The notes beneath the pieces are model-generated. The model was given only the letters and a program-made list of their open reading frames with translations. It searched no databases and was not told the origin of the DNA. The position numbers and the translations under genes are program-made. Positions 3,954-52,919 of a DNA stretch of 64,000 bases are shown piece by piece. Numbering within the stretch: position 1 is the stretch's first letter; each line of letters begins with the position of its first letter. Origin of the DNA: a virus; the IMG/VR virus record IMGVR_UViG_3300028392_000036, positions 32,001 through 96,000 of that record. The stretch is one strand, 5' to 3'.

Positions 3954-4689
3954 AATAACCAAGCGTAACCTAAACGAAGCAGGATTTGGAGCAGGATTGG
4001 CCAGCGGCCTAACTTCGGCCCTAAGCAAGGTTGGAGTTGGTGGACCTGATGCTAGTGCGTATCAACAATCCAAAATAGGAGGCCCAGGTGGACAACCGGG
4101 TGCCTACAAAGCCACGGCTGGCCTGGTCAAAACACTAACAACAACCATGCAAACAGCCTGGGCACAGACTATAAAATCATATCTAGAACAAACCAAGGAT
4201 GAACAGGGTAATCCTGTCATGGGCATTGCACAGTTACCTCCTGCCGCACAATCAATGTTGCACAAAGATCTAATGGCAATGATCAATAACACCATACGTC
4301 CCAGTATGCGTAACTTTGATTATCAGACCATGGGCAATCAATCTAACGATCCTGATGTAGTGGGCGCAGCCGCAGATATCAAAGATACTATCGCTAAAAA
4401 TGCAGACAAAATTTATCAACTCACAGTCAGCGGCACTGCTAAAACAGCCCAACTGACTCAGTTGTTTCAAGACATGGTAACCAATGGTATAGCTCCAGCA
4501 CAGAATTTATTGACTTTTACAACACAAAGAATAACTCCTAAATGGGGCAGAGACCCCACAACTGGAGAGATCACCATTGACACTCGCGGCGGTCAACCTG
4601 AAGTATTCGATTCATCCAATCCTCAACACAAAGAAGCCTGGGCCGATATACAAAATGGCATGGCCTCAAAAGGCCATCCTCCGGTATGA
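3940..4689 (+). CDS. Hypothetical protein, possible head internal protein
   Basis: AGGAGA RBS then ATG 3940; N-terminus MQIHEI..LNE resembles prohead-protease cleavage leaders. Confidence 0.55.
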   Translation: MQIHEITKRNLNEAGFGAGLASGLTSALSKVGVGGPDASAYQQSKIGGPGGQPGAYKATAGLVKTLTTTMQTAWAQTIKSYLEQTKDEQGNPVMGIAQLPPAAQSMLHKDLMAMINNTIRPSMRNFDYQTMGNQSNDPDVVGAAADIKDTIAKNADKIYQLTVSGTAKTAQLTQLFQDMVTNGIAPAQNLLTFTTQRITPKWGRDPTTGEITIDTRGGQPEVFDSSNPQHKEAWADIQNGMASKGHPPV

Positions 4690-6593
4690 TCAATCTCAAC
4701 GAAGGTGGCAATGTTTTCAAAGATGCACAAGGACAGCCACTAACACAACGCATCAAACAAACTGATATTCCTTCCACAGTGGCCTGGTTGGAAAAACTTA
4801 CTGGACTAGATCTGTCAGCTACCAAGGACGAATTAGGTGTCCCAGTTAAATGGTTAGGATCAACTGGCAAAAAACCTGACTCAGGTGATCTGGATCTTGC
4901 TGTAGATTCCAACGAAATAACCAAGGCCGAGCTAAAAGGCCGACTAGATGCCTGGGCCACAAAGAACAAGCAAGACCCCAAAGCCTGGACAAAACTCACA
5001 GGCGAAGCAGTACATTTTAAAACACCCATACAAGGTGATCCCAAGCGTGGTTATGTACAAACGGACTTTATGTTCATGCCCAACATGGAATGGGGCACAT
5101 TCTGGCTGGGTGGCGGTGCAGGATCAGCATACAAAGGTGTGTTCCGTAACGTACTGATGTCAAGTATTGCCAAAGCACTAGGACTCAAAGCCTCAGCCAA
5201 AGGTATTATCAGTCGTCAAACAGACAAAATGGTCACAATGGATCCAGATCAAGCCGCTGGTATCTTGTTGAGCCCTAATCTCAATAGCCGTAAAAATCTC
5301 GCCACAGTAGAAAGCATTTACAAAGCACTGGCAATGGATCCTGACCGTGATGCCAAACTGGCAGACTTCCGTGAGTATCTTGCACGTGAAGGCGTAAAAG
5401 AACCCGAACAGGGAGTGGCCGAAAGTGATGTCAACTTCTTGGCTCGCCTGCGTGACCGTATTGTGAACCAGGGCTATGTTGCCCTGGTAGAAGCAGAACA
5501 AGCTGGTGTGGGTGGCAGAGCCAAGGGCATCGAGCACCTGGAAGATCTAGTGTTCCGTCGTGGTACACAAGGCATCCGAGACGCACTCGAAATTGTTAAA
5601 CATGCCACAACACAGCCGTCAACTGTGACAGCTAAATGGGACGGCAAACCTGCTGTGATATTTGGACGCAAACCTGCCACTGGAGAGTTTGTGCTAACTG
5701 ATGGATCGGGCTTTGAAGCCAAAGGCTACGATGGTCTAGCAACAAGTCCACAAATGATGGCTGACATACAAAGCCATCGACCGGGCGACAGAACTGAAAT
5801 AATTCAAATCTATGCCACATTGTTTCCTATACTAGAAGCCGCATTGCCGCCCAACTTCCGTGGCTATGTCAAAGGCGACTTGCTGTACATGCAGACACCT
5901 CCTAATATTTCTGGCAACTATGTGTTCCGTCCTAACACAGTAGAATACAAAATTCCTGCCAAGTCCCCACTGGGACAGCGCATCGGAAACTCAGATATCG
6001 GCATTGCTATTCACTCAATGTATGCCGACGCAGGTGATGCACGTCAACCGTTAAGTGGTGTACGTTTTAACGACGTTCCAGGATTGATGTTAGAAAAGCC
6101 AGCAAGTCCCAAGCAGTTACAAACTGAAACCAACGCCGAAAAACAACTCAAGGCGTTGATCAAAACACATGGCAAAAACATAGATATCTTGTTTAATCCT
6201 ACAGAATTGCGAGCACACAAGATTACAGATCTAGCAAAACTGTGTGTGGACTTTATCAACACCAAAGTTGGCAGCCCGCTTAATGGTGCTACACTATTGC
6301 CCGAGTTTGGAAAGTGGCTAGAAACCAAGGTGACCCCACAAAAGTTCCGCAATATTGTGGAATACTTGAATAGCCCTACATCTAATACCCCTGCACTGGC
6401 AGCCGCATTTAATGCGTTTAACTTGTTACACGATGTCAAAATGCACTTGTTACAGCAAGCAGATACCGAGCACCCGGGACAAGAAGGCTGGGTCATGGCC
6501 ACCCCTGTAGGCTATGCAAAAGCAGTAAACAGATTTGATCCCAACGCATTTGCCGCTCAAAACCGCCTGAGAAACAATCCTCAACAGGCGTGA
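4686..6593 (+). CDS. Two-domain protein: Pol-beta-type nucleotidyltransferase plus ligase-like (KWDG) domain
   Basis: LGSTGKKPDSGDLD...QTD NTase motif; HLEDLV...KWDGKPAVIFG...GDLLY...EGWV ligase-like motifs. Confidence 0.6.
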   Translation: MINLNEGGNVFKDAQGQPLTQRIKQTDIPSTVAWLEKLTGLDLSATKDELGVPVKWLGSTGKKPDSGDLDLAVDSNEITKAELKGRLDAWATKNKQDPKAWTKLTGEAVHFKTPIQGDPKRGYVQTDFMFMPNMEWGTFWLGGGAGSAYKGVFRNVLMSSIAKALGLKASAKGIISRQTDKMVTMDPDQAAGILLSPNLNSRKNLATVESIYKALAMDPDRDAKLADFREYLAREGVKEPEQGVAESDVNFLARLRDRIVNQGYVALVEAEQAGVGGRAKGIEHLEDLVFRRGTQGIRDALEIVKHATTQPSTVTAKWDGKPAVIFGRKPATGEFVLTDGSGFEAKGYDGLATSPQMMADIQSHRPGDRTEIIQIYATLFPILEAALPPNFRGYVKGDLLYMQTPPNISGNYVFRPNTVEYKIPAKSPLGQRIGNSDIGIAIHSMYADAGDARQPLSGVRFNDVPGLMLEKPASPKQLQTETNAEKQLKALIKTHGKNIDILFNPTELRAHKITDLAKLCVDFINTKVGSPLNGATLLPEFGKWLETKVTPQKFRNIVEYLNSPTSNTPALAAAFNAFNLLHDVKMHLLQQADTEHPGQEGWVMATPVGYAKAVNRFDPNAFAAQNRLRNNPQQA

Positions 6594-7170: not shown

Positions 7171-7602
7171 ATGAAAATCGTATGCCGTACTCTTTTTGAT
7201 TGTAGTCTCACTGGCGTGACCGGCCATTTCAGGCCAAGCGAAATTCCTTTTGTGGATCGTGCTGGTCAACAGGTGCGTAGTCAACACGATTGGAATCATT
7301 CACGCAATCAACAACGCAATTGGGAAACACTACTACAGATCATAAGTCTGCGTACACAGCCTGCTGACCTTACGGTACCTGTACATCGAGACGGAGTATG
7401 GGAATTTGAATTCAAGAGCGAAAGTGAAGGTGTATTTGAGATGTACGGAGATCCTGATCCACTAGCAGGACTCCGAGTTGATTGCGAAGGTGTGCCAATG
7501 ATGTTGAATCTCACTGAACAACCAAGTCTAGCACCAACTATTACTACCAATGGCAAAGGCCAAAACATTTGGTTCATTGCGGTAAATAATGCATTGGAGT
7601 AA
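7171..7602 (+). CDS. Hypothetical protein
   Basis: ATG 8 nt after TAAATA (7157-7162). Confidence 0.65.
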   Translation: MKIVCRTLFDCSLTGVTGHFRPSEIPFVDRAGQQVRSQHDWNHSRNQQRNWETLLQIISLRTQPADLTVPVHRDGVWEFEFKSESEGVFEMYGDPDPLAGLRVDCEGVPMMLNLTEQPSLAPTITTNGKGQNIWFIAVNNALE

Positions 7603-7604
7603 TC

Positions 7605-7868
7605 ATGGTTGACACAACTGATATCGAAAAGAAAAGTCTCGAAGCCCACGTTGAATTATGTGCTCAACGTTATACTGCCTTAGAACAACGCATCGATGAT
7701 GTCAAGCAAGACACAGCAGAATTAAAGTCTACTATACAAGAAGTGCATAGATTGGTACATAAAATGAGTGACAATCGTAACACACAGTTGATTGGTTGGG
7801 GAGTAGGAATCATTGGATTCTTGACAGCCGTCATAGGATACTTGGTCACTCACTACGTACTAAAATGA
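7605..7868 (+). CDS. Coiled-coil protein with C-terminal transmembrane helix
   Basis: GGAG RBS; heptad region then IGWGVGIIGFLTAVIGYLV. Confidence 0.65.
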   Translation: MVDTTDIEKKSLEAHVELCAQRYTALEQRIDDVKQDTAELKSTIQEVHRLVHKMSDNRNTQLIGWGVGIIGFLTAVIGYLVTHYVLK

Positions 7869-33864: not shown

Positions 33865-33927
33865 TGTAGTGCCGATGGTCGGGCTACACAACAAGTCATC
33901 TTGCTTATATAAAGGAGAAAACAAATG
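33865..33927 (+). promoter_or_regulatory. ROSE-like RNA thermometer in the hsp20 5' UTR
   Basis: Hairpin TGTAG..CCGA-TGG-TCGG..CTACA, then UCUUGCUU pairing with AAGGAGA with bulged G. Confidence 0.65.
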
Positions 33928-34377
33928 ACAAAAACTCTCACCCTTCGTTCTTTCGATATTCCCGCACTTCACAAATTTGGTATCGGTTTCGATAACATGT
34001 TTGATGATCTCATGCGTGTGAGTACTCAGCAGTCTACTTCAAACTACCCACCCTACAACATTGTGCAAATCAATGAAGATGAGTACATGATCAGTCTTGC
34101 TGTGGCCGGCTTTGGGCTTGATAATCTTTCAGTTACCAAGGACAAAAAGTTCTTGATCATTGAAGGCAAAGAGTATCACCCTGACAGTGAAAAGATTGAG
34201 CCAAACTACTTGCACAAAGGTATCAGCAACAGAGATTTCCGCAGAGAATTCCAACTTGCAGATCACGTGGAAATCAGTAATGCACACCTTGAACTTGGTA
34301 TCTTGAGCGTTCACTTAAAGCGTGAAGTGCCAGAAGACGCCAAACCAAAGACTATTGCTATCACCTACACAGTGTAA
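33925..34377 (+). CDS. Small heat-shock protein (IbpA-like Hsp20)
   Basis: IGFD, NYPPYNI, AVAGF, YLHKGIS.R.F, GIL, IxI tail. Confidence 0.95.
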   Translation: MTKTLTLRSFDIPALHKFGIGFDNMFDDLMRVSTQQSTSNYPPYNIVQINEDEYMISLAVAGFGLDNLSVTKDKKFLIIEGKEYHPDSEKIEPNYLHKGISNRDFRREFQLADHVEISNAHLELGILSVHLKREVPEDAKPKTIAITYTV

Positions 34378-34433: not shown

Positions 34434-34745
34434 ATGGCGCAAAGCGATACAAGAACACGAATTAAACCTGCCGAAGACTTTAAAGAACCACCAATGTACC
34501 GTGTTGTATATCTTAATGATAATCAAACAACATACGAATTTGTGGTCGAAACGCTGATAGAGTATTTTGACTATACCGCAGACACAGCACACACTATCAC
34601 GACAGATATTCATGATGCTGGATCAGCCTGTGTGGCAGTATTACCTTATGAAATTGCCGAACAAAAAGGCATTGAAATAACCATGCAAGCCCGAGCTCAA
34701 AACTATCCATTGCAAATCAGAGTCGAGCCCGAAGGCGCAGTTTAA
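34434..34745 (+). CDS. clpS: ClpS N-end-rule adaptor
   Basis: PPMYRVVYLND..T.EFVV, IH..G, EIAEQK, YPL. Confidence 0.9.
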   Translation: MAQSDTRTRIKPAEDFKEPPMYRVVYLNDNQTTYEFVVETLIEYFDYTADTAHTITTDIHDAGSACVAVLPYEIAEQKGIEITMQARAQNYPLQIRVEPEGAV

Positions 34746-35533
34746 AATTCTATAACAATTCGTTGGGGATAATATACAGATCGAGAATACGGTGTATCTC
34801 CCCTGCCTCGACAGTTATTTACAAAGCGTATTCCTGATCTAGTTTGGTCTATTGAGCCGTGATAGTGACCAAAGCACCAGGTGTGTAGTTTGTTTTCGAT
34901 GTCGGCTGCCATGGCCTGCATCATGACTCTGTTGCCCATAACGTTAAATCTCATGGTACCGTCCAGTTCAATGTCGTGTGCAATTAGCGCAGGATCGGGC
35001 ACAGTATGAGTAATCATTACAATCTTTTTAACATCTTTATGAGTTTGCAATTTGGCCACACTAGAGATCATATAAGTGGCATCGGTGTTGCTCATTCGAG
35101 CAATACCTTTGGTAGCACTCTCGCTTAGGTGATATTTTTCTCTACACCATTGTGCAGCCTGTTCGGGATCAATCCCAAGGTCAAAGTCAAATCCCCACCA
35201 GCCGTTGGTACCCAAAATAGCCACACCGTCCACAATGACCACGTTGTCTTGGAGGTAAACAACATTGGGAATACGACGCAGGCGTTGAGCAAGATCGGTA
35301 TAACTGTATCCTAAATCCTCCAATTGTCCAAAGTGTTCATCGTTGCCGTCGATGTAAAACACCGCTTGGTAACACTTGCCCAGATGTTTAAGGGTTTGAA
35401 CCACAAGATCTCGATCACGGCAGATATCTCCTGCTACCACGCATACAGGACTGGTGGCCTGGTATCCCCAGTCAAACTCCCCTGCCCAGGTTTCGAGATG
35501 TAAATCAGAAATTAAATCAAATGCTAAACTCAT
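34742..35533 (-). CDS. Calcineurin-like metallophosphoesterase
   Basis: SDLH, AGD, GNDEH, TH, GHYH. Confidence 0.85.
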   Translation of the reverse strand: MSLAFDLISDLHLETWAGEFDWGYQATSPVCVVAGDICRDRDLVVQTLKHLGKCYQAVFYIDGNDEHFGQLEDLGYSYTDLAQRLRRIPNVVYLQDNVVIVDGVAILGTNGWWGFDFDLGIDPEQAAQWCREKYHLSESATKGIARMSNTDATYMISSVAKLQTHKDVKKIVMITHTVPDPALIAHDIELDGTMRFNVMGNRVMMQAMAADIENKLHTWCFGHYHGSIDQTRSGIRFVNNCRGRGDTPYSRSVYYPQRIVIEF

Positions 35534-37127: not shown

Positions 37128-38366
37128 ATGAAAAAAATTGGATTTATTGGTATCGGCAAACTGGGACTTGATTGTGCCGAAGTTATGGCAGAGAAGCATG
37201 AAGTCAGAGGCTACGATATTTACCCACGAGTCAGCGACTCAGTAAAAGTTTGCGATATTGACGAATTGGTCAATGAAAGCGAATGGATTTTTATTGCAGT
37301 ACCCACCCCACACGCAGAAGGCTACGATGGCTCAGTGCCAAGCTCGCATATGGAACCTCGAGACTTTGGCCACGATGCTGTGATTGATGCCATTAACAAA
37401 GTTAATCAACATGCCAAGAGTCCTAAAAAGGTTGTGTTAATCTCTACAGTGCTTCCTGGTACCACACGTACCAAGTTTGTTCCTCTACTAGACAAGCAAC
37501 ATCAGTTTTTGTACAATCCTTACCTGATCGCCATGGGCTCAGTCAAGTGGGATATGGCCAATCCTGAAATGGTTATTATTGGTACAGAAGACGGTGAGCT
37601 CACAGGTATTGCAGGCGAATTGATTGAATTGTACAAAACAATAATGAACAACGATCCACGATATGAAATTGGCACCTGGGACGAATGTGAAGCTATCAAG
37701 ATTTTCTACAACACATACATCAGTGCCAAAGTTGGTATTGTTAATATGATCCAAGATTTTGCCATGAAGATTGGCAATATCAATGTTGATGTTGTTACCA
37801 ATGCATTGGCTCGCTCAACAATGAGATTGCAAGGTCCCAAGTATATGACAGCAGGTATGGGCGATGCTGGCGCTTGCCACCCGCGTGACAATATTGCACT
37901 GCGTTGGTTGGCAGAACGCTATGAAATAGGCTATGATTTGTTTGACACAATTATGCATGCTCGTGAAATCCAAGCTAAAAACTTGGCCCTGTTCCTTGTA
38001 GAACAAGCCAAACAAAATGGTATGAGTGTTGTGATTCACGGCAAAGCATACAAACCTGATGTAGAATACTGTATTGGTTCATACAGCACCTTGGTAGGAC
38101 ACTATGTTAAAGAAGCAGGATTTGGTGTAAGGTATATTGACCCAATAGCAGATGATTCTACTGAAGTTGTTTCGGAAATAGTTGGGCCAGCAGTCATACT
38201 ATGGGCACACAATCGCAAAATCACTTACGAATACACAGGCGAACAAAAAGATACTCAGGCCTATTGTGAAATCCCAAAAGGTAGTATTATCGTTGATCCA
38301 TGGCGCAAACTTCCACAGATTGAGAATTTGACTGTGGTACATTATGGCAACACCAGAAATTCTTAA
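37128..38366 (+). CDS. UDP-glucose/GDP-mannose dehydrogenase family protein
   Basis: GIGKLG, IAVPTP, STVLPGT, K..YN, GACHPRD catalytic Cys, AYKPD. Confidence 0.9.
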   Translation: MKKIGFIGIGKLGLDCAEVMAEKHEVRGYDIYPRVSDSVKVCDIDELVNESEWIFIAVPTPHAEGYDGSVPSSHMEPRDFGHDAVIDAINKVNQHAKSPKKVVLISTVLPGTTRTKFVPLLDKQHQFLYNPYLIAMGSVKWDMANPEMVIIGTEDGELTGIAGELIELYKTIMNNDPRYEIGTWDECEAIKIFYNTYISAKVGIVNMIQDFAMKIGNINVDVVTNALARSTMRLQGPKYMTAGMGDAGACHPRDNIALRWLAERYEIGYDLFDTIMHAREIQAKNLALFLVEQAKQNGMSVVIHGKAYKPDVEYCIGSYSTLVGHYVKEAGFGVRYIDPIADDSTEVVSEIVGPAVILWAHNRKITYEYTGEQKDTQAYCEIPKGSIIVDPWRKLPQIENLTVVHYGNTRNS

Positions 38367-38862
38367 ATATCATATTCCAAAGTTTTGGGATGATGAGTTT
38401 AAGAACCTTGTGTACGTAAATGAACAGTTCAATGACACAGTGAGTCTTGAACGTTGGGTTGCACAAGGCTATGCTAATAAGTTTACTGGGGACATGTGCG
38501 ACATGCGTAGCCCACAGCCCAGTTGGAATGAACGTTTTGTCAACATCTACACTGAACTAGGGTGGAAAGACATTGGCACCAGTTACTATAGAATGGGCAC
38601 TGGTACCATACTTCCCACACATGGCGACTTGTATCTTCGCTATGTTGACTTGTTCAACCTTCAAGGACAAGAACAACGCATACGCAGAGCCATTGTGTTT
38701 TTGGAAGACTGGAAACCTGGACATTATTTTGAAGGTAACAATGTTGCCAAGGTCAATTGGCGAGCAGGCGATGTTGTTGAATGGTGCTATGACGCACCAC
38801 ACTTGGCAGCCAACATGGGACTTGAGCCAAGATACACATTACAAATTACAGGATGGATATGA
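38344..38862 (+). CDS. 2OG-Fe(II)/Asp-hydroxylase-like oxygenase
   Basis: PTHGD, PHLAAN, RYTLQ. Confidence 0.75.
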   Translation: MATPEILKYHIPKFWDDEFKNLVYVNEQFNDTVSLERWVAQGYANKFTGDMCDMRSPQPSWNERFVNIYTELGWKDIGTSYYRMGTGTILPTHGDLYLRYVDLFNLQGQEQRIRRAIVFLEDWKPGHYFEGNNVAKVNWRAGDVVEWCYDAPHLAANMGLEPRYTLQITGWI

Positions 38863-39776
38863 TCAGTAGTTACGATGAGTGGAGTCCACTCAAAAAGATT
38901 GTGGTAGGAACAGCTACCAATGCCAATTGGCCAGTAAATGATCCGGTGTTCTCTAAAGAGAGTGAAAAAACTACCTGGAAAGAAACACCTGTTCCGAGTG
39001 GACCTGTGCCCCAGTGGATAATTGATGAAGCCAACCAAGACCTAGATGGCCTAGCAACGACCCTGATGAGCCTAGGCGTAGAAGTAGTGCGCCCAGATCC
39101 ACTCAACTTTCAAGCCCACGATGGCATGTATAATTATTGCCCACGCGACAGATTGCTGGTGCTTGGTAACACTATTGTAGATCCTGCCATGATGTACCCT
39201 TGTAGAGATATGGAACTACAGTGCTACCAGGACATAGTAGACAGTGCTGATCACTATTTGTTTATGCCACGAAATGAAGGACTAGTACTTGATGCTGCCA
39301 ACATACTACGCCTTGGTCCTAACAAACTGCTGTACCTAGAAAGTGCCAGTGGGAATAAAGAGGCATACTATTGGTTGTTGGCAAATCTGCCAACCAACAC
39401 TAGTATTGAACTATGCAATTTTTATTCAGGAGTGCATATTGATTCGACCATTGTGCCTTTGCGAGAAGGCCTGGTCATGCTCAATGCTAGTCGTGTAAAG
39501 TTTGATAATGTACCCCAGGTATTTGATGGCTGGCACAAGATCTGGGTAAACGATGTTGTTGCCCAAGATTTTTATCAGTACCCGTATGCATCAAAGTGGA
39601 TAGCAATGAATATGTTGGTGGTGGATCCACACACGGTCATATGCGACCGAAATCAACCCGAACTGATCAAAACACTCCAATCATATAAATTTGAAGTGAT
39701 TCCGCTAGAGTTGCGCCACAGCCGAACACTGGGCGGAGGATTTCATTGTGTTACACTGGATCTAGTGCGCGAATAG
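38859..39776 (+). CDS. Amidinotransferase (glycine/inosamine-phosphate type)
   Basis: EWSPL, CPRD, DAAN, HIDST, GGGFHCVTLDL catalytic Cys. Confidence 0.9.
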   Translation: MISSYDEWSPLKKIVVGTATNANWPVNDPVFSKESEKTTWKETPVPSGPVPQWIIDEANQDLDGLATTLMSLGVEVVRPDPLNFQAHDGMYNYCPRDRLLVLGNTIVDPAMMYPCRDMELQCYQDIVDSADHYLFMPRNEGLVLDAANILRLGPNKLLYLESASGNKEAYYWLLANLPTNTSIELCNFYSGVHIDSTIVPLREGLVMLNASRVKFDNVPQVFDGWHKIWVNDVVAQDFYQYPYASKWIAMNMLVVDPHTVICDRNQPELIKTLQSYKFEVIPLELRHSRTLGGGFHCVTLDLVRE

Positions 39777-41285: not shown

Positions 41286-41544
41286 TTGGATACGCAGTGA
41301 TTACAAAACTAACCCACTTAGGTTCGTCGTGGAAGTACTGGCTTGGGCTGTGTCTATTGGGTGCAGTATTACGATGGCTGCCACTGTACCTAATCCCCCT
41401 CTTGTGGTACTTTACCCTATATGGATTAGTGGTTGTGCTATGTATGCTTGGGCTAGTTGGACTCGTAAATCGTTTGGTATGTTGGCCAACTACTGCCTAC
41501 TAGTCAGCATTGATACTGTGGGTTTGCTACGTATGATTTTGTAA
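41257..41544 (+). CDS. Small membrane protein (3 TM)
   Basis: Hydrophobic helices. Confidence 0.6.
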   Translation: MNNIFLNIFDWIRSDYKTNPLRFVVEVLAWAVSIGCSITMAATVPNPPLVVLYPIWISGCAMYAWASWTRKSFGMLANYCLLVSIDTVGLLRMIL

Positions 41545-41573
41545 CAAAATTGTAACACAAATTAGCCTAAATA
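41539..41573 (+). promoter_or_regulatory. Pho box plus TAAATA promoter of pstS
   Basis: TTGTAAC-AAAA-TTGTAAC (11-bp period), 11 nt, TAAATA. Confidence 0.75.
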
Positions 41574-41596
41574 ATTGTCTAACAAGGAGACTTTGA

Positions 41597-42601
41597 GTGA
41601 AACAATTATTTGCAATCTTACTAGCGTCAATATCAATCTCAGCATCAGCACAGACTATAACAGGTGCTGGCGCAACATTCCCATACCCCATCTATAGCAA
41701 GTGGTCAGAACTTTACAACAAAGAAACTGGCGTAGCACTCAATTACCAATCAATTGGTTCCAGTGGCGGCATTCGTCAAATTGATGCCAAAACAGTGACC
41801 TTTGGTGCAACTGATGCACCTGTAGCCGGGGACAAACTAGACAAAAATAGTCAAGTACAGTTTCCCGCTATCATTGGCGGAACAGTTCCTATTGTTAACT
41901 TGGATGGCTTCAAGCCCGGAGAACTACGTATTACAGGTCCTGTAATGGCAGAAGTGTTCTTGGGTGAAATCTCCAAATGGAATGATCCAAAGTTGGCGGC
42001 ACTTAACCCAGGTAAAAAATTACCTGACTTAGAAATTACTATTGTGCATCGTGCAGATGGTTCGGGTACTACATTTAACTGGACAGATTATTTGTCATCT
42101 ACCAGCGCCAAGTGGGCCGACAAGGTTGGCAAAGGTGCCGCAGTCAAGTGGCCAGCCGCAAGTTCAGTAGGTGGCAAGGGCAACGAAGGTGTTGCCGCTA
42201 ATGTACATCGTGTTAAAGGCTCCATTGGCTATGTTGAATATGCTTATGTTAAAAAGAACAATTTGACTTTCTTGCAATTACAAAACAAGTCAGGCAAATA
42301 TGTCAGCCCAGATGATCTAACATTTGCTGCCGCGGCAGCCGGTGCTGATTGGTTCTCAGTTCCTGGTATGGGTGTGAGCATTGTAGATCAGCGTGGTGAT
42401 ACAGTATGGCCTGTAAGCACAGCCAGTTTCATCATCATGTACAAAGACCCCACAGACAAGAAAGCCAGCCAAGACACATTGAAGTTCTTTGATTGGGCAT
42501 TCAAGAACGGTAAGAAAGCCGCAGAGGAATTAGACTATGTGGCATTACCAGACATTCTAACAAAACAAATTCGCGAGCGTGTGTGGAGTCAGATCAAGTA
42601 A
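41597..42601 (+). CDS. pstS: Phosphate ABC transporter binding protein PstS
   Basis: Signal peptide, GAGATFP, YQSIGSSGG, FGATD, RADGSGTT, IGYVE. Confidence 0.97.
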   Translation: MKQLFAILLASISISASAQTITGAGATFPYPIYSKWSELYNKETGVALNYQSIGSSGGIRQIDAKTVTFGATDAPVAGDKLDKNSQVQFPAIIGGTVPIVNLDGFKPGELRITGPVMAEVFLGEISKWNDPKLAALNPGKKLPDLEITIVHRADGSGTTFNWTDYLSSTSAKWADKVGKGAAVKWPAASSVGGKGNEGVAANVHRVKGSIGYVEYAYVKKNNLTFLQLQNKSGKYVSPDDLTFAAAAAGADWFSVPGMGVSIVDQRGDTVWPVSTASFIIMYKDPTDKKASQDTLKFFDWAFKNGKKAAEELDYVALPDILTKQIRERVWSQIK

Positions 42602-42648
42602 TTAAACCGACCACAACGATAGAGTGGCGCTGGAACTCGTAACCAGCA

Positions 42649-42677
42649 GATACCCCAAATTTTTGGGGTATTTTTTT
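42649..42677 (+). terminator. Rho-independent terminator
   Basis: ATACCCCAA/TTGGGGTAT plus T run. Confidence 0.8.
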
Positions 42678-42717
42678 GTCCGTGTTTAATGATTTGATCG
42701 CAGAGTTAAATATCTAT

Positions 42718-42882
42718 ATGAGTTGGTTTAAGCGAATTCCACACAGATACCCTCCACAAACGCCTGCCTCTGCACCACATAGAACTAGCCCTGCCACTGA
42801 TCGAGCACTAGAAGAGTCTAAATTGCTGGGTCCAAAATCCCGTAAAAAAACTGTCAAAAAGCCCCCACTAAATACTGAATGA
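42718..42882 (+). CDS. Small basic hypothetical protein
   Basis: ATG 5 nt after TAAATA; ATGA coupling to next gene. Confidence 0.45.
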   Translation: MSWFKRIPHRYPPQTPASAPHRTSPATDRALEESKLLGPKSRKKTVKKPPLNTE

Positions 42883-43541
42883 AACCCACCATAGCCCTAT
42901 TTTTGCACGACCCCAAATGTAGTGTACAAAGTGGCAATGGGCTCATGCGAGCCCTAGGCGATCATTACAAGTTCAAAATATTTGGTAAAAACAAACTAGA
43001 AGATGTGTTCTTTGACGACGTAGACATGATTGCTGTACCCGGTGGCTTTGGCGATGCTGATTCATTTGACGGACTGTTCAAACACAATGCTGAACGTGTG
43101 CAACAATTTCTAGAACGTGGCGGTCGATACTTGGGTATTTGCATGGGTGCATACTGGGCCGGCAGCGAATATCTCAACATCTTGGATGGTGTGGATGCTG
43201 TGCAGTATATCCGTCGCCCTGGCACAGACACACATAGACCACATGCTAAAAACCTGCCTGTGTTGTGGCAAGATCGTTGGGGCAATATTGAGCCCTGGAA
43301 AATGTTCTTTTACGATGGCTGTGCATTGGTAGGGGACAAAACCAAGTTTCGAACCATGGCCACATATATGAATGGAGACGCCATGGCAATTATACAAAAC
43401 AATATTGGACTGATAGGTTGTCATCCTGAAAGCGAGCAGTTCTGGTATGACAGTTACTCCTGGATGCGGGGTCGATATCATAGAGGTCAACATCATACAT
43501 TGTTGTTAGACTTTGTGGATCAAATGTTTGTAACAAAATAG
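42879..43541 (+). CDS. BPL-N / class I glutamine amidotransferase-like protein
   Basis: VPGG, YLGICMGAY nucleophile elbow, CHPE. Confidence 0.8.
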   Translation: MKPTIALFLHDPKCSVQSGNGLMRALGDHYKFKIFGKNKLEDVFFDDVDMIAVPGGFGDADSFDGLFKHNAERVQQFLERGGRYLGICMGAYWAGSEYLNILDGVDAVQYIRRPGTDTHRPHAKNLPVLWQDRWGNIEPWKMFFYDGCALVGDKTKFRTMATYMNGDAMAIIQNNIGLIGCHPESEQFWYDSYSWMRGRYHRGQHHTLLLDFVDQMFVTK

Positions 43542-43562
43542 TAACACAGATCCGCCTAAATA
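43528..43562 (+). promoter_or_regulatory. Pho box plus TAAATA promoter of the plcP-agt operon
   Basis: TTGTAAC-AAAA-TAGTAAC, 11 nt, TAAATA; same architecture as the pstS promoter. Confidence 0.75.
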
Positions 43563-43566
43563 TTAG

Positions 43567-44361
43567 ATGCAGAAAACGTATCGCAGTATTTTTATCAGTG
43601 ATGTACACCTGGGCACAAGAGACTGCAAGGCAGAAGAACTAAACAATTTCCTAAAGCACAACTCCTGCAATACTTTATATCTTGTGGGGGACATTATTGA
43701 TGCTTGGAAAATGCAACAAAACAAATTGCGATGGAAACAAAGTCATACCAACGTTGTCCGTAGGGTTCTTGGTCACGCTAAACGTGGCACTAGGGTTGTA
43801 TACGTGGCTGGAAATCATGACGAATTCCTGCGTCCGATGATACCGTATGCTGCCACATTTGGTACTGTGGAAATATGTAATCAATGCGAACATGTGGGTG
43901 CAGACGGCAAACATTATCTTGTGGTGCATGGCGACCTGTTTGATGGTATCACCCGACTGGCACCATGGTTGAGTTTTTTGGGAGACAAAGCATATGATTT
44001 TATCCTGGGGCTTAATAGTAGATTTAATTGGATCCGCCATCGTATGGGTTTTGGTTATTGGAGTCTTAGCCAGTTTCTTAAGCATAGGGTCAAAAAAGCC
44101 ATTGACTTCATGTTTCACTTTGAAAGAAACCTTGCGGCCTACTGCAAAAAAAGAGGATTTGATGGCGTGGTCTGCGGTCACATACACCACGCAGAAATAA
44201 AAGAAATAAACGGTGTAGTATATATGAATGACGGCGACTGGGTTGAAAGTTGTACTGCACTTGTAGAACATCATGACGGGCGTTGGGAAATCGTAACATG
44301 GACACAAAAAAATGACCAAGAAGATATTGATAATAACAGACAACTTGCCGGATCAAATTAA
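43567..44361 (+). CDS. plcP: PlcP-type phospholipase C (LpxH-like metallophosphoesterase)
   Basis: SDVHLG, GDIID.W, GNHD, HGDLFD, LGDKAY, YWSLS..LK..VK, CGHIH, NDGDWVES; adjacent GT4. Confidence 0.82.
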   Translation: MQKTYRSIFISDVHLGTRDCKAEELNNFLKHNSCNTLYLVGDIIDAWKMQQNKLRWKQSHTNVVRRVLGHAKRGTRVVYVAGNHDEFLRPMIPYAATFGTVEICNQCEHVGADGKHYLVVHGDLFDGITRLAPWLSFLGDKAYDFILGLNSRFNWIRHRMGFGYWSLSQFLKHRVKKAIDFMFHFERNLAAYCKKRGFDGVVCGHIHHAEIKEINGVVYMNDGDWVESCTALVEHHDGRWEIVTWTQKNDQEDIDNNRQLAGSN

Positions 44362-45325
44362 TGGCGTGGTTACCACTTACAAGAACATTGAGGCTTGTGC
44401 GGTACTGGATGGTTATCATGTTGATTATATTGATCCCGGGCGGTTCCGCTACATTAATTGCCCTCGCTACCACGAAGTCAAGATTGCCTATCCCCGGAAT
44501 CTGGGCGCGAAGATTGAGGAGATTGCTCCGGATTATATCCACATCGCCACCGAGGGTCCTCTTGGTTTGTGGGCTCGAGCATATCTTTCACTGGGCAATA
44601 TTCGTCACAATACCGCTTATCATACTAAGTTTCCAGAGGGACTTAAGAAACTATTTGGGATTCCTGAATTCGTAACCTGGCGGTTTGTACGCTGGTTTCA
44701 CAAACACTCAGGCAAGGTACTAACCACGACAGATTCAATGGTTCGAGAATTGCAAGCACATGGATTCAATGGCGAAGTGATTCCGTGGACACGTGGTGTT
44801 GACCGTGAGATATTCCACCCTGGCTATCGTGATCGAGAAGATGACCACAAAATATTATTATGCGTTGCCCGTGTGAGTAAAGAAAAGAACTTGGAAGACT
44901 TTTTTGAATTACAATATCCCAAGAGTCGCAAAATCATGGTAGGTGATGGCCCTATGCTAGAGAAATATCGAAAGCAGTATCCTGATGTGGAGTTTGTAGG
45001 ATTTAAGACAGGCACAGAACTAGCAGAATATTATGCCAATGCTGATGTGTTTGTGTTTCCAAGTCAGTGGGAAACATTTGGCATTGTGATGATTGAAGCC
45101 ATGGCCTGTGGTACCCCTGTAGCCGCATATCCATGCCAAGGTCCCGAAGATGTTGTGGAACCAGGTGTGACTGGTTATTTAGAACAAGATCTAGCCACTG
45201 CGGTGCATCGTTGTATCGGGCTCAACAGGGACCAAGTATTAGAGGGCAGCCAACGCTGGAGTTGGGAACGAGCCTGGCACATATTCCGAGACAATCTCAC
45301 TCCCAACCACTTGTGGACCAAATAA
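44312..45325 (+). CDS. GT4 glycosyltransferase, Agt-like glycolipid synthase
   Basis: TD..PDQINGV, HIATEGPLG, YHTKFPE, RVSKEKN, ETFGIVMIEAMA. Confidence 0.85.
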   Translation: MTKKILIITDNLPDQINGVVTTYKNIEACAVLDGYHVDYIDPGRFRYINCPRYHEVKIAYPRNLGAKIEEIAPDYIHIATEGPLGLWARAYLSLGNIRHNTAYHTKFPEGLKKLFGIPEFVTWRFVRWFHKHSGKVLTTTDSMVRELQAHGFNGEVIPWTRGVDREIFHPGYRDREDDHKILLCVARVSKEKNLEDFFELQYPKSRKIMVGDGPMLEKYRKQYPDVEFVGFKTGTELAEYYANADVFVFPSQWETFGIVMIEAMACGTPVAAYPCQGPEDVVEPGVTGYLEQDLATAVHRCIGLNRDQVLEGSQRWSWERAWHIFRDNLTPNHLWTK

Positions 45326-45343
45326 ATTAATCAAAGGAAAAAC

Positions 45344-45952
45344 ATGAAAGAAATACTACAAACACTTCGCGAGCAACGTTGGGACGATCATCGTTACTAT
45401 CATCACAGTAGAATCAATCAATTTTTACACTTAATCTCAGCCTTAAGTTTCTTGATTGCCTATGTTTATCTGTTTATTGATCCTGTTGTGAGTGCATGGA
45501 TTGCTTGGTTGATTGCCATGACTACTCGTCAAGCCGGGCACTTTTTCTTTGAACCACACGGCTACGATGAATACAACAAGGCCACATTTGAACACAAAGA
45601 AAAAATCAAAATTGGTTTTAACTTAAAACGCAAACGGGTGTTGCTCACATGCTGGGTCGCAGTGCCTGCCCTGGCGTTCTTTGATGCTGAACTAATGAAT
45701 CTGTTAATACCCAACAACGACCCAATGACATTTGTAAACCGTGTGGGTATGGGATGGTTATGGCTGGGTGCGGCTGGTGTGTTGTTTAGAATGATCCAAT
45801 TGACCGCACTACAGAGCAGACGGGTTGCGTTAGTTTGGTGCTTGAAGATCTTGACTGATCCATTTCACGATGTATGGATCTATCGCAAGAGTCCCATATA
45901 CTTGATGCAAGGACAGTTGATTGACCCTGATTTACGTCAAGATTACTCTTGA
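45344..45952 (+). CDS. Mpo1/DUF962-like membrane protein
   Basis: YHHSRIN..LH and GHFFFE His motifs, several TM helices. Confidence 0.6.
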   Translation: MKEILQTLREQRWDDHRYYHHSRINQFLHLISALSFLIAYVYLFIDPVVSAWIAWLIAMTTRQAGHFFFEPHGYDEYNKATFEHKEKIKIGFNLKRKRVLLTCWVAVPALAFFDAELMNLLIPNNDPMTFVNRVGMGWLWLGAAGVLFRMIQLTALQSRRVALVWCLKILTDPFHDVWIYRKSPIYLMQGQLIDPDLRQDYS

Positions 45953-46653
45953 TTGCGAAGTCTAGCAAGTCCTAGTATTCTAAACAGGCTGAGCCACATC
46001 CAGCCTATATCGAATTCCCACCAAGTCTTAGAGAGGCGGGCACTCGCTGGTGCCAGGTGGTGGTTGTTGTGCAGTTCTTCGCCGCCAATAACAATGCCCC
46101 AAGGACTAATATTACGACTACGATCTTTAGTTTCGCCATTTCTATATCCTATCCAATGTCCAATGCCGTTTATGACTCCAGCCGCCCAGAATGGAATCCA
46201 TATCATTTGTATACCCCATATAACCGGACCCCACCAACCAAACACTAGGGTGTTGAGCACAAGGAGAATGCCAATGCCAAGTCTACTGTGAGGCTGGTAT
46301 ATGTGAAGCTCCATCCAATCAGCAGGAGTACCAACACCGTATGCGTCAACCATGACACGATCTTTTGATGCTTCATGATACAGTACCGCTCCTTTAAAGA
46401 AAACTCTCTTGATTCCGTACACGTGAGGTGAGTGCGGATCACCTTCTGCATCACTGAATCTGTGATGCTTGCGGTGTATGGCCACCCATTGCTTGGTTAC
46501 CATGCCTGTGGTCAACCATAACCAGGCTCTCATGAAGTGTTCAAGCACAGGATGAAATTCTATACCTCGGTGTGCTTGGCCACGATGTAGGTACAACGTG
46601 ACACAGATGATAGTAATGTGTGTCATTACCAGTGTTGCGATTAGTTCTGTCAT
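45943..46653 (-). CDS. Membrane fatty-acid (acyl-CoA delta-9-type) desaturase
   Basis: His boxes HRGQAH, HRKHH, HNNHH; DPHSP. Confidence 0.92.
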   Translation of the reverse strand: MTELIATLVMTHITIICVTLYLHRGQAHRGIEFHPVLEHFMRAWLWLTTGMVTKQWVAIHRKHHRFSDAEGDPHSPHVYGIKRVFFKGAVLYHEASKDRVMVDAYGVGTPADWMELHIYQPHSRLGIGILLVLNTLVFGWWGPVIWGIQMIWIPFWAAGVINGIGHWIGYRNGETKDRSRNISPWGIVIGGEELHNNHHLAPASARLSKTWWEFDIGWMWLSLFRILGLARLRNQE

Positions 46654-46712
46654 AGTTTATTTACTCATATGTAGGTGCTTTTATTTTAAGCGATTGTTTT
46701 TAAATATATGCT

Positions 46713-47951: not shown

Positions 47952-48497
47952 TTAAAACAATGTGGGAATCCAGAGCCAGATGGCCTGACTCATCAGCAAC
48001 ATTGCAATACCGCCTACATATAAACTGGCGGTGTACAGTCGATTGTTCACTGCCAATATACTAGCCGATAATAGCACAATGGCAATCTGGAATAGACTTC
48101 CAGCAAACGTGTACCAAGGGCTACGTTGTTTTGCCACAGCACGATCTGCTTCTAAACCACGTGCCTTGGCCATGAGTTCTTTCTTGCCCTCACCTGTAGC
48201 AGGATCCGATTCATAACGTGCAATCTTCTTGCTGAGTGCGGCAACCTTGTTCACATCCTTGCGAGCCATGGCATCATCTAAGGCCATCTCGGCCAAGGTG
48301 CCTTTGATTGATTTGGCTTGATAAAATGCCCAAGTATTATTGGCCTCAATGGTGTCGTTTAGTATTCGGCCTGAGTTGCCGTTGCCCATATATGTGTTGA
48401 TAGCCAAGAATGCGGCAAATACAACGATTACCCATCCTGCTTTGTCTTTGATTAGTGCTTCACGCTCTGAGCGTGATAATTGTTTTTGTTCTGCCAT
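47952..48497 (-). CDS. DUF4337-like membrane protein
   Basis: WAFYQAKSIK motif, QIAIVL TM helices. Confidence 0.75.
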   Translation of the reverse strand: MAEQKQLSRSEREALIKDKAGWVIVVFAAFLAINTYMGNGNSGRILNDTIEANNTWAFYQAKSIKGTLAEMALDDAMARKDVNKVAALSKKIARYESDPATGEGKKELMAKARGLEADRAVAKQRSPWYTFAGSLFQIAIVLLSASILAVNNRLYTASLYVGGIAMLLMSQAIWLWIPTLF

Positions 48498-48531
48498 GTT
48501 TAGCTCCTTTGTGTATTATTTATTGGTCAAT

Positions 48532-48553
48532 AAAAAAGCCCCTTGCGGGGCTT
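48532..48553 (-). terminator. Rho-independent terminator (minus strand)
   Basis: AAGCCCC-TTGC-GGGGCTT with A run on plus strand. Confidence 0.75.
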
Positions 48554-48555
48554 GA

Positions 48556-48804
48556 TTAGTTTGCTGGGGTCTTCCGTGCTCGGGGCTTTCGGGCTGCCAC
48601 TGCTGGTTTAACAGCAGGTGGTGCCTTGGGCTTGGCCGGTGCTTTTTTAGCAGGAGTAGTTGCTACTGCTGGAGCAGGTTCCGGGGCAATTTCACTTGCC
48701 TTGGGAAACGGCCAATCACTAGCAGGTGCCTCAACTTTGTAAGGCGCCTCAGGTGCCGGTGCGGCAGGCTTGCCGAGAAAGAATTCCTTGATTTTGTTTA
48801 ACAT
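48556..48804 (-). CDS. Pro/Ala/Lys-rich small protein
   Basis: AGGAG RBS, TAAATA upstream; EAPYKVE and PAK repeats. Confidence 0.65.
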   Translation of the reverse strand: MLNKIKEFFLGKPAAPAPEAPYKVEAPASDWPFPKASEIAPEPAPAVATTPAKKAPAKPKAPPAVKPAVAARKPRARKTPAN

Positions 48805-48824
48805 AACGATCTCCTATAGAGTAT

Positions 48825-49445
48825 TTAACCCTGATCGGTGTTGCCCAAACGCTTCTTCATGAAGTTCAAAAGCAAGCCGTATGCTGGCAAGAACACAACA
48901 AAGCCAACTAAAATCTTCAATAGACTTTGGCTCAGGGCAATCTCGGGCCAGTTAGCGGCCATGTACTCGTCAGCACCACCCGAGAAGGCAATACTGAAGA
49001 ACACATAACTGTCGATGAAGTTGGCAACAACCATGCTGAGTGCAGGAGCCGCCCACCATTGCTGTGTGAACTTTTCGCGAACATATTGGAACACGTATAC
49101 ATCTAACAAGCAACCAATTAGGTATGCTGTGGCTGATCCAAAACCAATACGTAAGGCAACTGATTGTGGTGCGCCTTCTAAGAGAACAACAGCAATACTA
49201 CCAATGATGGCAAGTGGATAGGCAGCCGCAATAGTGGCTCGAGCAATACCTTTACCAATCAATCGTACTGTCAAGTCTGTAGCCAAAATTACCAAGGGAT
49301 AGGTAAATGCGGCCCATGTCAATTTCACACCCATGATCTCAACTGGAATTGAAACTAGAGCATTGCTGATTACGATCACGAAGATATGTAATGCAACCAA
49401 TTTGGCCATCATGACCCGATCTACGCCTTTGAAAATATCAAACAT
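48825..49445 (-). CDS. yhhQ: Queuosine precursor transporter (YhhQ/VUT family)
   Basis: ISN, TWAAFTYP..LATDLTVR..G, RIGFGS..AY, DS..FF.IAF. Confidence 0.88.
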   Translation of the reverse strand: MFDIFKGVDRVMMAKLVALHIFVIVISNALVSIPVEIMGVKLTWAAFTYPLVILATDLTVRLIGKGIARATIAAAYPLAIIGSIAVVLLEGAPQSVALRIGFGSATAYLIGCLLDVYVFQYVREKFTQQWWAAPALSMVVANFIDSYVFFSIAFSGGADEYMAANWPEIALSQSLLKILVGFVVFLPAYGLLLNFMKKRLGNTDQG

Positions 49446-49510
49446 CTGTGTCTCCTTTGTATGTTGATCTAGTAGTTATGTTTCTAGTGACAGCTCACTA
49501 GAGAAATCGC

Positions 49511-49603
49511 TTGATTTCTGGTGTTTTTTTCATATATAATACTACATAGGACGCTGGATAGGCCGGGTCCTATAGTAAACTCGCTTTATAGGAGAACCAT
49601 ATG
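49511..49603 (+). promoter_or_regulatory. sigma70 promoter and ROSE-like 5' UTR of the phasin-like gene
   Basis: TTGATT-18-TATAAT; hairpin TAGGAC..GTCCTA; CUCGCU pairing with AGGAG with bulged G. Confidence 0.6.
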
Positions 49604-49876
49604 TTTACAGCAGACGCAATCATCGACACCGTTCAAACCGGTAAAAAAACTTTAGTTAACACATTCGTTACCAACGAAACAGCCAAAGAATCAATGATCA
49701 AGTTCATTGACGCACAAGCAGACTATACCAAACGAGCCGCCAAGGTTGGAATGGACACAGCAACTACATTGACCAGTGAAATGATCAAACAAGTGGAAGC
49801 AGTGGCAAAGTATGACTATGCCAAAGCAGGTCAAGACTTCCTAAAGGCATTCCAGCCCACAACTAGTAAAAAGTAA
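49601..49876 (+). CDS. Phasin-like small helical protein
   Basis: IDTVQTGKK..V..F...FIDAQ..YTK amphipathic pattern. Confidence 0.5.
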   Translation: MFTADAIIDTVQTGKKTLVNTFVTNETAKESMIKFIDAQADYTKRAAKVGMDTATTLTSEMIKQVEAVAKYDYAKAGQDFLKAFQPTTSKK

Positions 49877-49897
49877 TACCTTAGTATTACCTTTCTG

Positions 49898-49953
49898 AAA
49901 GGCCCCAATTTTTGGGGCTTTCTCTTGACCAATAAATGTCAAAGTGCTATAAT
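49898..49953 (+). promoter_or_regulatory. Terminator hairpin followed by sigma70 promoter
   Basis: AAAGGCCCCAA/TTGGGGCTTT; TTGACC-17-TATAAT, ATG 6 nt later. Confidence 0.75.
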
Positions 49954-49959
49954 ACGGTT

Positions 49960-50379
49960 ATGAATACAAAACTTTACTTTGGCTACGGCATGAACACCAA
50001 TCTCAATGAGATGGCGTATCGGTGTCCTCGGGCACGAAGTCTTGGCCACGCACGACTATTAAATAGTGCGTTTCGCTTTGCTACTCACGCTGACGTGGTA
50101 GTGGTACCTGATTGCTATGTGGACGGAGTACTATGGTCTATCACTGAAGAATGTTTACAGAAACTGGATGCACTAGAAGGCTTCCCGCATTATTACAATC
50201 GCATTGAGATGGCTGTGGAACATGACGGTGAAATAAAAGATGCCATTGTTTACTTTATGAACCCTGGTCAGGCAGATGGCTTGCCCAGTCAAGGCTATTT
50301 TGATCTCCTGATGGAAGGCTACACCCAACATGGTGTGCCAACAGAACAATTACACAACGCATTGGAACTGTGGGTATGA
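49960..50379 (+). CDS. Gamma-glutamylcyclotransferase (AIG2-like) family protein
   Basis: YFGYGMN, RCP, GVLW, LDALEG..Y. Confidence 0.85.
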   Translation: MNTKLYFGYGMNTNLNEMAYRCPRARSLGHARLLNSAFRFATHADVVVVPDCYVDGVLWSITEECLQKLDALEGFPHYYNRIEMAVEHDGEIKDAIVYFMNPGQADGLPSQGYFDLLMEGYTQHGVPTEQLHNALELWV

Positions 50380-52337: not shown

Positions 52338-52919
52338 ATGATCATGCCAATAATTGAAACTACCCAAACTGAACAAACTCACACTCAAGCACTTGCTGAC
52401 ACTGGCATGTATGTTTTTATGGGAGACGTGGATGATGAAAGTATCAAGCCAGTTGTGGAATGGATGCTGTATGAAAACTATGTGAGCAAGAAAAAGAAAA
52501 AAGAATTGTTACTCATGATTTGCTCCAATGGTGGAGACATGGGTGCGGCCTTTGCCCTAATTGATGTAATGATGAGCAGCCAAATTCCAGTAAAAACTGT
52601 GGGCCTGGGAACCATTGCATCAGCAGGCTTGTTGATCTTTATCTCTGGCACTCACGGACGACGAGTTCTTACACCTAATACTTCAATTCTAAGCCATCAG
52701 TTCTCCTGGTACAACGAAGGCAAAGCACATGAGTTGTTTGCTACCATGCGTGAGTTTGAACTCACACAGGCTAGAATGATTGCACACTATGAATTGTGTA
52801 CAGGCCTGGGCCGGGAAGAAATACGCACGAACTTGTTGCCACCACAAGACGTTTGGTTATCAGCATCAGAAGCCCTGGCTCTGGGCATCTGCGATGACAT
52901 CAGTGTGGTCAAGAGTTAA
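52338..52919 (+). CDS. Divergent ClpP-family protease
   Basis: SNGG, IASAG (Ser), SHQ (His), QD (Asp), EALALG..D. Confidence 0.85.
   Translation: MIMPIIETTQTEQTHTQALADTGMYVFMGDVDDESIKPVVEWMLYENYVSKKKKKELLLMICSNGGDMGAAFALIDVMMSSQIPVKTVGLGTIASAGLLIFISGTHGRRVLTPNTSILSHQFSWYNEGKAHELFATMREFELTQARMIAHYELCTGLGREEIRTNLLPPQDVWLSASEALALGICDDISVVKS

Follow-up and report, generated by a model that had tools for sequence, protein, structure and literature searches.

The closest described relatives of the locus reported here are the bacterial PlcP-Agt operons of Pseudomonas aeruginosa (PA3219-PA3218; PMC8528852), of SAR11 HTCC7211 and Phaeobacter MED193 (PMC4796936) and of Sinorhizobium meliloti (SMc00171). 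We examined a window of 64 kb, corresponding to bases 32001-96000 of a 142,901-bp virus record of IMG/VR (IMGVR_UViG_3300028392_000036), in which the same enzyme families, a PlcP-type metallophosphoesterase and a GT4 glycosyltransferase, are encoded in the same order, by overlapping genes and behind a Pho-type box. Unlike the bacterial operons, this module is phage-encoded and preceded by a phage TAAATA element that leaves hardly any leader; a DUF962 gene lies downstream, and the control layout of the module recurs at pstS and at a BPL_N-like gene. Its GT4 reads FPSxWETFG and (A/S)RVSKEKN where the bacterial Agt reads FPSxTDTFG and GRVAxEKN. A first-pass annotation, made from the letters of the window alone, had interpreted the locus as a Pho-box-controlled module for remodelling phospholipid into glycolipid. 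Overall, our sequence analysis supported this interpretation, because LpxH identity of the phosphoesterase and host contamination both came out negative in silico. We consider it probable that the phage pstS/plcP/GT4 module, driven by host PhoB, scavenges phosphorus from host membrane lipid.

Among phages, Zeng and Chisholm reportedly found in 2012 that the cyanophage phosphate genes pstS and phoA are induced via host PhoBR. The likeness to the present locus lies in a phage-borne Pho-regulon gene with a Pho-type box as in the host, through which the gene would answer to phosphate stress of the host; the difference is that pstS is here of the proteobacterial type, and that the module would add an internal recycling of phosphorus from membrane lipid. 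A PlcP-like gene under the annotation LpxH is also found in two isolated phages, Pelagibacter phage Mosig EXVC030M and Synechococcus phage S-SRM01 (48% and 36% identity to the phage PlcP described here, respectively), with no adjoining GT4 in either. In the marine phage Mosig, pstS and the PlcP-like gene are divergent neighbours (positions 3894-5729), with TTAACA-N5-TTAACA and an ATAAATA just 5' of the ATG. Full-text searches of the literature for phage plcP or lpxH returned descriptions of the bacterial pathway and no phage-encoded PlcP or Agt, in agreement with the novelty that had been suspected for the pair, and recycling of membrane-lipid phosphorus was absent from those published phage phosphate genes that the searches brought up.

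The phosphoesterase and its relation to LpxH

The phosphoesterase and LpxH have a common calcineurin-like core with a helical insert, and both JGI and GenBank name the phage protein UDP-2,3-diacylglucosamine diphosphatase, that is, a true LpxH of lipid A biosynthesis. LpxH is also the nearest solved fold: for the AlphaFold model of the phosphoesterase (predicted local distance difference test score 79.5) the best 25 PDB matches were all LpxH, with a template modelling score of about 0.55. At the sequence level this identity was refuted. The protein fell below the cut-offs of both curated LpxH equivalogs (48.4 and 35.4 bits, cut-offs 134 and 190), was 21-29% identical to verified LpxH, and matched the solved LpxH with an E value of only 3e-4. 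Its matches in 201 Pseudomonadota genomes formed two groups, one of 40-57% identity (E 1e-52 to 1e-97) and one of 22-31% (E about 1e-4), and two of these genomes carried one homologue from each group, thus both paralogues. All seven weak matches that were extracted proved to be true LpxH (267-373 bits on the LpxH models). In a maximum-likelihood tree, LpxH separated at 100% support, and the phage protein lay inside the PlcP family, as the first-pass annotation had anticipated; the 39 phage sequences formed one clade (support 99) among proteobacterial PlcP-like proteins. We regard a true LpxH as an extremely improbable identity for this protein. The homologues of Mosig and S-SRM01 branched apart from the jumbo-phage clade in the same tree and, because they lie outside it, suggest independent acquisitions.

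The phosphoesterase was 45.7% identical (E 1e-68) to an S. meliloti protein whose gene adjoins those of an acyl-homoserine lactone synthase and a LuxR-type regulator; we take these neighbours to be sinI and sinR, and hence the locus to be SMc00171. It was 57% identical (E 4e-97) to a P. aeruginosa protein encoded before a glycosyltransferase and an adenylate/guanylate cyclase, which is the arrangement of the PA3219-PA3218 locus characterised by Jones et al. 2021 (PMC8528852). Both anchors were taken from chromosome-derived records in PLSDB. The match to the characterised P. aeruginosa PlcP lies well within the similarity threshold of E < 1e-40 used for PlcP by Sebastian et al. 2016 (PMC4796936).

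The motifs of calcineurin-like metallophosphoesterases (DxH, GD, GNHD, H and GHxH) are all present, and the residues D12, H14, G41-D42, G82-N83-H84-D85, H121 and G204-H205-I206-H207 were invariant in 62 sequences. The YWSLS..LK..VK stretch, which had been singled out from the letters of the window, is real and almost invariant across the family. Both contextual marks of PlcP were found as well, namely a link to a gene of non-phosphorus lipid synthesis (the overlapping Agt-like GT4) and an upstream box of phased repeats. By its sequence, the phosphoesterase is thus a member of the PlcP family, a paralogue rather than an orthologue of LpxH, and a predicted phospholipase C yielding diacylglycerol.

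The glycosyltransferase

A PlcP homologue was present in 52 of 151 alphaproteobacterial genomes. The gene that best matched the phage GT4 directly adjoined plcP in 49 of the 52 (36-46% identity over residues 3-331; match coordinates were compared by eye), and other GT4 paralogues matched only partially, with E values of 1e-9 to 1e-34. Identity to the Agt1-type protein of P. aeruginosa was 39% (E 1e-77). The clade formed by Agt and the Pelagibacter enzyme GTcp is less than 25% identical to other GT4, and the motifs GRVAxEKN and FPSxTDTFG were defined for GTcp, whose catalytic dyad is His104-Asp256, with the Asp located within FPSxTDTFG (Wei et al. 2021). The bacterial glycosyltransferases adjacent to plcP read GRVAVEKN and FPSxTDTFG. 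In the phage GT4, Gly82, Gly85 and His104 (in AYHTKFP) stand at the positions published for GTcp; its UDP-sugar motif is ARVSKEKN, in which R, E, K and N are kept, and G and A are changed.

The assignment of this gene to Agt in the first-pass annotation stands as far as the plcP-linked Agt type is concerned; as to Agt proper, the catalytic motif has W-E for T-D. Because W-E and ARVSKEKN both depart from the Agt motifs, the protein is best classed, on its sequence, as a divergent sister of Agt and as a predicted diacylglycerol glycosyltransferase. In five relatives, plcP and GT4 do not overlap, and the gap holds a conserved open reading frame (ORF) of about 31-53 residues (..ECE.A....LKF.SFKV..), which is absent from the window.

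Promoters and candidate Pho boxes

The upstream regions of pstS and plcP share an element of about 35 nt, composed of two TGTAAC-type repeats 11 bp apart, 11 nt and TAAATA. The exact GTAACA-N5-GTAACA pair was found at only two sites in the 142.9-kb contig, 41541 and 43530, directly 5' of pstS and plcP, which bears out the claim of a common promoter for the two genes. A looser search for the whole layout over the 143 kb returned three sites, 5' of the consecutive genes pstS, the BPL_N-like gene and plcP; the degenerate copy 5' of the gene at 42879 had been missed in the first-pass annotation.

The layout is conserved in relatives. Phased repeats were present in 47 of 58 unique plcP upstream regions, compared with a background of 0.15% per 80-mer, and in 47 of the 52 unique regions that bear TAAATA the repeat pair stood at the spacing of the window or 10-11 bp further out; the ATG always followed 4-8 nt past TAAATA. 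The pstS genes of relatives are preceded by this layout too. Some relatives have a canonical TGTCAC-N5-TGTCAT before plcP (with canonical TGTCA(C/T)-type boxes in two relatives there), and in close relatives a canonical TGTCATAAAACTGTCAA lies 5' of the BPL_N-like gene (three with TGTCA(C/T)-type boxes there). The repeats of the window, TGTAAC/AGTAAC, keep the TGT and the A of CTGTCAT-N4-CTGTCAT; those of relatives read TGTCAC/TGTCAT and TGTCAT/TGTCAA. The architecture is that of a PhoB-type promoter, with direct repeats in 11-bp phasing about 10 bp upstream of a -10-like element, in place of a -35 element. The conserved helical phasing and the canonical Pho boxes of some relatives support phosphate control of the module at the sequence level, and we infer that PhoB binds at the candidate boxes.

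TAAATA with an ATG within 8 nt also lies 5' of at least 9 genes without a box, including those of the ligase and the desaturase, and for this reason TAAATA, which by its sequence is T4-late-like, is best seen as the phage's own promoter type, with the Pho-type repeats added onto it. Elements of this class look like phage late-type promoters giving leaderless or nearly leaderless mRNAs. The plcP mRNA is probably leaderless or nearly so, since the ATG is only 4 nt after TAAATA. On the contig, at least 11 genes have a TAAATA whose distance to the ATG is 1-8 nt, for example at window positions 25843, 30859, 34742 (minus strand), 42879, 43567 and 46653 (minus strand).

Distribution in the lineage

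As many as 206 IMG/VR contigs carried a PlcP homologue with 77-96% identity, and thousands of metagenome proteins homologous to PlcP carry the JGI label LpxH. The neighbouring GT4 is less conserved, its identity among relatives falling to 55-89%, compared with 77-96% for PlcP, a contrast that speaks for selection on PlcP. A downstream GT4 on the same strand was present in 31 of the 64 plcP loci with enough flanking sequence. To gauge the presence of plcP itself, five large genomes of the lineage were chosen by terminase alone; three of the five carried plcP, and one of these three is 346.9 kb long and has terminal repeats. PlcP is thus the common element of the lineage; the full pstS-plcP-GT4 trio is a minority form and pstS is rare, because GT4 and pstS are often missing from plcP-bearing relatives. 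As to the co-occurrence in related phages, which the first-pass annotation had proposed to survey, GT4 goes with plcP in about half of the loci. Keeping the membrane intact with glycolipid, as that annotation proposed, is an optional step, because across the lineage plcP alone is common.

Phage origin and host

By CheckV the 142,901-bp record is 41% complete, so that the whole genome should measure about 350 kb. A large terminase (match E 8e-119) is encoded on the same 142.9-kb contig as the module, along with a helicase, tail-fibre and virion-protein matches, ribonucleotide reductase and an ATP-dependent ligase. Searches of this contig for two hallmarks, the capsid of nucleocytoplasmic large DNA viruses and Gp23, gave no match, and the lineage was assigned via the capsid of relatives together with the contig's terminase. 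Near-complete relatives sharing module genes (347-367 kb, including genomes of 367 and 353 kb) have a T4-type Gp23, with which the capsid proteins of Sinorhizobium phage Phosso, Vibrio phage 2.275.O, PA5oct and CBB-type jumbo phages share 66-72% identity. No isolated phage with this sequence was found in a DNA search at near-identity, and a tRNA scan of the 64-kb window found none. In our assessment the source is a lytic-type freshwater myophage of about 350 kb with a T4-type capsid, which carries a set of host-derived metabolic genes.

Two contigs of the lineage that carry plcP are binned in a public metagenome-assembled genome (MAG) of Haliscomenobacter. This could point to host DNA joined to phage DNA through misassembly or mis-binning, but several observations speak against it: the G+C content is uniform over the whole window, the terminase is on the contig, the promoters are of the phage TAAATA type, many metagenome contigs of independent origin share the order uvdE, BPL_N-like gene, plcP, GT4, and the 346.9-kb genome with terminal repeats has plcP. 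The MAG, when searched for this pstS, gave no match. Given the terminase on the contig and a gene order common to dozens of independent viral contigs, host contamination, which had been named as a possible weakness of the interpretation, is very unlikely, and the module DNA is phage DNA; a chimera would be a highly improbable explanation.

The host is probably a proteobacterium. Haliscomenobacter was considered as the host because of the two binned contigs, which were treated as mis-binned; the sole box-like match in this MAG outside the phage contigs falls within coding sequence. A strict box pattern applied to bacterial plcP upstream regions returned nothing useful for naming the host. An island of host-like genes was also noticed in the window (33925-34377, 47952-50379 and 52338-52919); it comprises genes for an IbpA-like small heat-shock protein, DUF4337, a YhhQ-type queuosine-precursor transporter, a protein like gamma-glutamyl cyclotransferase and a ClpP-like protease.

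Proposed mechanism

In the mechanism that we propose, host PhoB in a phosphate-starved infected cell would bind the repeats (11-bp spacing), one helical turn 5' of TAAATA, and turn on three adjoining units: pstS, the BPL_N/amidotransferase-like gene, and plcP-GT4, probably together with the DUF962 gene. PstS would increase phosphate capture. PlcP would remove the phospho-head group of phosphatidylethanolamine, phosphatidylglycerol or phosphatidylcholine, leaving diacylglycerol, to which the Agt-like GT4 would add a hexose or hexuronate from a UDP-sugar, so that a phosphorus-free glycolipid could refill the bilayer. Host phosphatases would then convert the freed phospho-head groups into phosphate for phage DNA. 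We infer both enzyme activities, their substrates and the benefit to the phage from sequence.

Several observations weigh against this scheme. The repeats in the window are TGTAAC rather than the consensus TGTCAT. PhoB ordinarily acts through sigma-70, and the downstream element looks T4-late-like and not like a sigma-70 -10 box; since genes without a box use the same TAAATA, plcP might be transcribed regardless of the boxes. The glycosyltransferase has FPSQWETFG in place of FPSxTDTFG, with the catalytic Asp replaced by Glu, and W-E stands in place of T-D in 37 of 39 phage GT4 copies; because Glu stands where Agt has its catalytic Asp, the product of the phage enzyme may differ from that of Agt. 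Finally, plcP was absent from one of the genomes chosen by terminase, which is 91% complete, and among five near-complete PlcP-bearing genomes GT4 was present in two and this pstS in none.

The promoter observations could also mean that the repeats are not PhoB sites, being bound by a phage-encoded or other regulator or having no role, and that the genes are ordinary late genes expressed regardless of phosphate, with PlcP and GT4 still remodelling lipids. The departure of TGTAAC from CTGTCAT would fit this, as would the use of TAAATA by genes without a box and the position of the ATG 4-8 nt after TAAATA, unlike textbook Pho promoters. However, boxes stand before pstS, the archetype of a Pho gene, relatives have canonical TGTCAT/TGTCAC pairs at the same position, the phasing is held at whole helical turns, and bacterial plcP-agt operons are under Pho-box control (PMC8528852). 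We think this alternative unlikely.

Alternatively, the enzyme pair may change the envelope of the host to an end unrelated to phosphorus economy, such as a block of superinfection, the timing of lysis or, with the desaturase, membrane fluidity, or the acceptor of GT4 may not be diacylglycerol. A lipid desaturase and the DUF962 protein do adjoin the pair, the catalytic motif of GT4 departs from Agt, and published work reportedly ties lipid remodelling to phage adsorption. The pair has, however, its promoter layout in common with pstS, the tight order of plcP and glycosyltransferase matches the bacterial operon, and many relatives have plcP without GT4, which is consistent with head-group release as the core function. 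An envelope function of this kind appears quite unlikely to us, and scavenging of phosphorus from membrane lipid under host PhoB remains the reading that we prefer.

Layout of the locus and neighbouring genes

The features of the locus are collected in Table 1. The genes, including pstS, the overlapping plcP and GT4 and the convergent desaturase, were all found where the first-pass annotation had placed them.

Table 1. Features of the pstS-plcP-GT4 locus (window coordinates)
Feature	Position	Strand	Remarks
pstS promoter	41540-41573	+	TGTAAC 41540-41545 and TGTAAC 41551-41556, 11 nt, TAAATA 41568-41573
pstS Shine-Dalgarno AAGGAG	41584-41589	+	read from sequence
pstS, periplasmic phosphate-binding protein	41597-42601	+	GTG start; signal-peptide-like N-terminus; NF008171, TIGR00975
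Intrinsic terminator 3' of pstS	42648-42680	+	11-bp stem, then T run
Degenerate third promoter copy	42841-42874	+	CGTAAA, TGTCAA 11 bp on, 11 nt, TAAATA; ATG 4 nt later
BPL_N/class I glutamine-amidotransferase-like protein, 220 aa	42879-43541	+	Pfam BPL_N 36.8 bits, GATase 25.4 bits
plcP promoter	43529-43562	+	TGTAAC 43529-43534, AGTAAC 43540-43545, 11 nt, TAAATA 43557-43562; ATG 4 nt downstream
PlcP-type calcineurin-like metallophosphoesterase, 264 aa	43567-44361	+	LpxH paralogue
Agt-like GT4 glycosyltransferase, 337 aa	44312-45325	+	Pfam GT4/GT1 domains; 50-nt overlap with plcP
DUF962/Mpo1-like membrane protein, 202 aa	45344-45952	+	19 nt after GT4 gene
Delta-9-type acyl-lipid desaturase (Pseudomonas DesA family), 236 aa, convergent	45943-46653	-	NF049918
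Desaturase promoter TAAATA	46658-46663	-	repeat box absent

PstS scored 386 bits on the equivalog NF008171 (cut-off 339) and 360 bits on TIGR00975, and was 51-56% identical to PstS of Azospirillum, Ralstonia and Paraburkholderia, compared with 36-37% for cyanophage PstS. A cyanophage origin, which the name 'DesA' had brought to mind, was ruled out by this low identity to cyanophage PstS and by the delta-9 Pseudomonas type of the desaturase. The pstS terminator is strong, and its hairpin also precedes the BPL_N-like gene in relatives without pstS. The BPL_N-like protein, in which a Cys-His-Glu triad can be read (GICMG, CHPE), has mostly viral Atlas clusters, and its gene lies near plcP in many relatives.

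The DUF962/Mpo1-like ORF scored 21.2 bits on Pfam PF06127, below the gathering score of 24, and the Mpo1-like call of the first-pass annotation is accordingly weak, although the Atlas neighbours of the protein are DUF962 clusters. The ORF is conserved at 92-97%, in the closest relatives only, and is probably on the same transcript as GT4. An annotated Mpo1-like gene also lies two genes from plcP-agt1 in P. aeruginosa (record positions 7432-7749); its product and the DUF962 protein of the phage were not significantly similar (E 0.07), having only the GHF-x-FE motif in common.

The desaturase belongs to the DesA family of the delta-9 type, with three His boxes (HRGQAH, HRKHH and HNNHH) of the HRxxxH/HRxHH/HNxHH pattern. 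Its score on NF049918, 388 bits, is just below the cut-off of 400, because the protein spans only positions 11-241 of the 385-position model. The gene had been counted as part of the co-regulated module; it is present and convergent, but it has its own TAAATA promoter without the repeat box.

Two further loci of the window may be mentioned. At 37128-39776, a divergent nucleotide-sugar dehydrogenase (TIGR03026, 136 bits, cut-off 190) is followed by two overlapping ORFs, for which no family match was found; the three genes are syntenic with the module in relatives, and the dehydrogenase could be a source of UDP-glucuronate for GT4. A second metallophosphoesterase gene at 34742-35533 (minus strand), with a weak match to TIGR03729 and a TAAATA promoter, could encode a processor of phospho-head groups.

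Implications

The known phage phosphate genes (pstS, phoA, phoH) serve uptake from outside the cell. If a phage brings its own PlcP, whether or not Agt comes with it, the host membrane would become a further source of phosphorus, inside the cell. One genome of 350 kb holds about 7e5 phosphorus atoms, and the phospholipid of one bacterium roughly 1e6 to 2e7; by this comparison, lipid phosphorus could limit or extend the burst size in phosphorus-poor lakes. In its widest form, which we put forward only tentatively, the finding would mean that PlcP is lineage-wide in an abundant clade of freshwater jumbo phages, that host phospholipid is a quantitatively important source of phosphorus for their 350-kb genomes, that host PhoB has been wired into a late-type, near-leaderless TAAATA promoter of the phage, and that the W-E type of Agt may make a different glycolipid. 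As plcP is filed as lpxH, it has probably been tallied with lipid A synthesis where viral metabolic genes were surveyed. In the promoters of the module, a host response regulator would be joined to a phage-type promoter element, a combination that can be put to the test.

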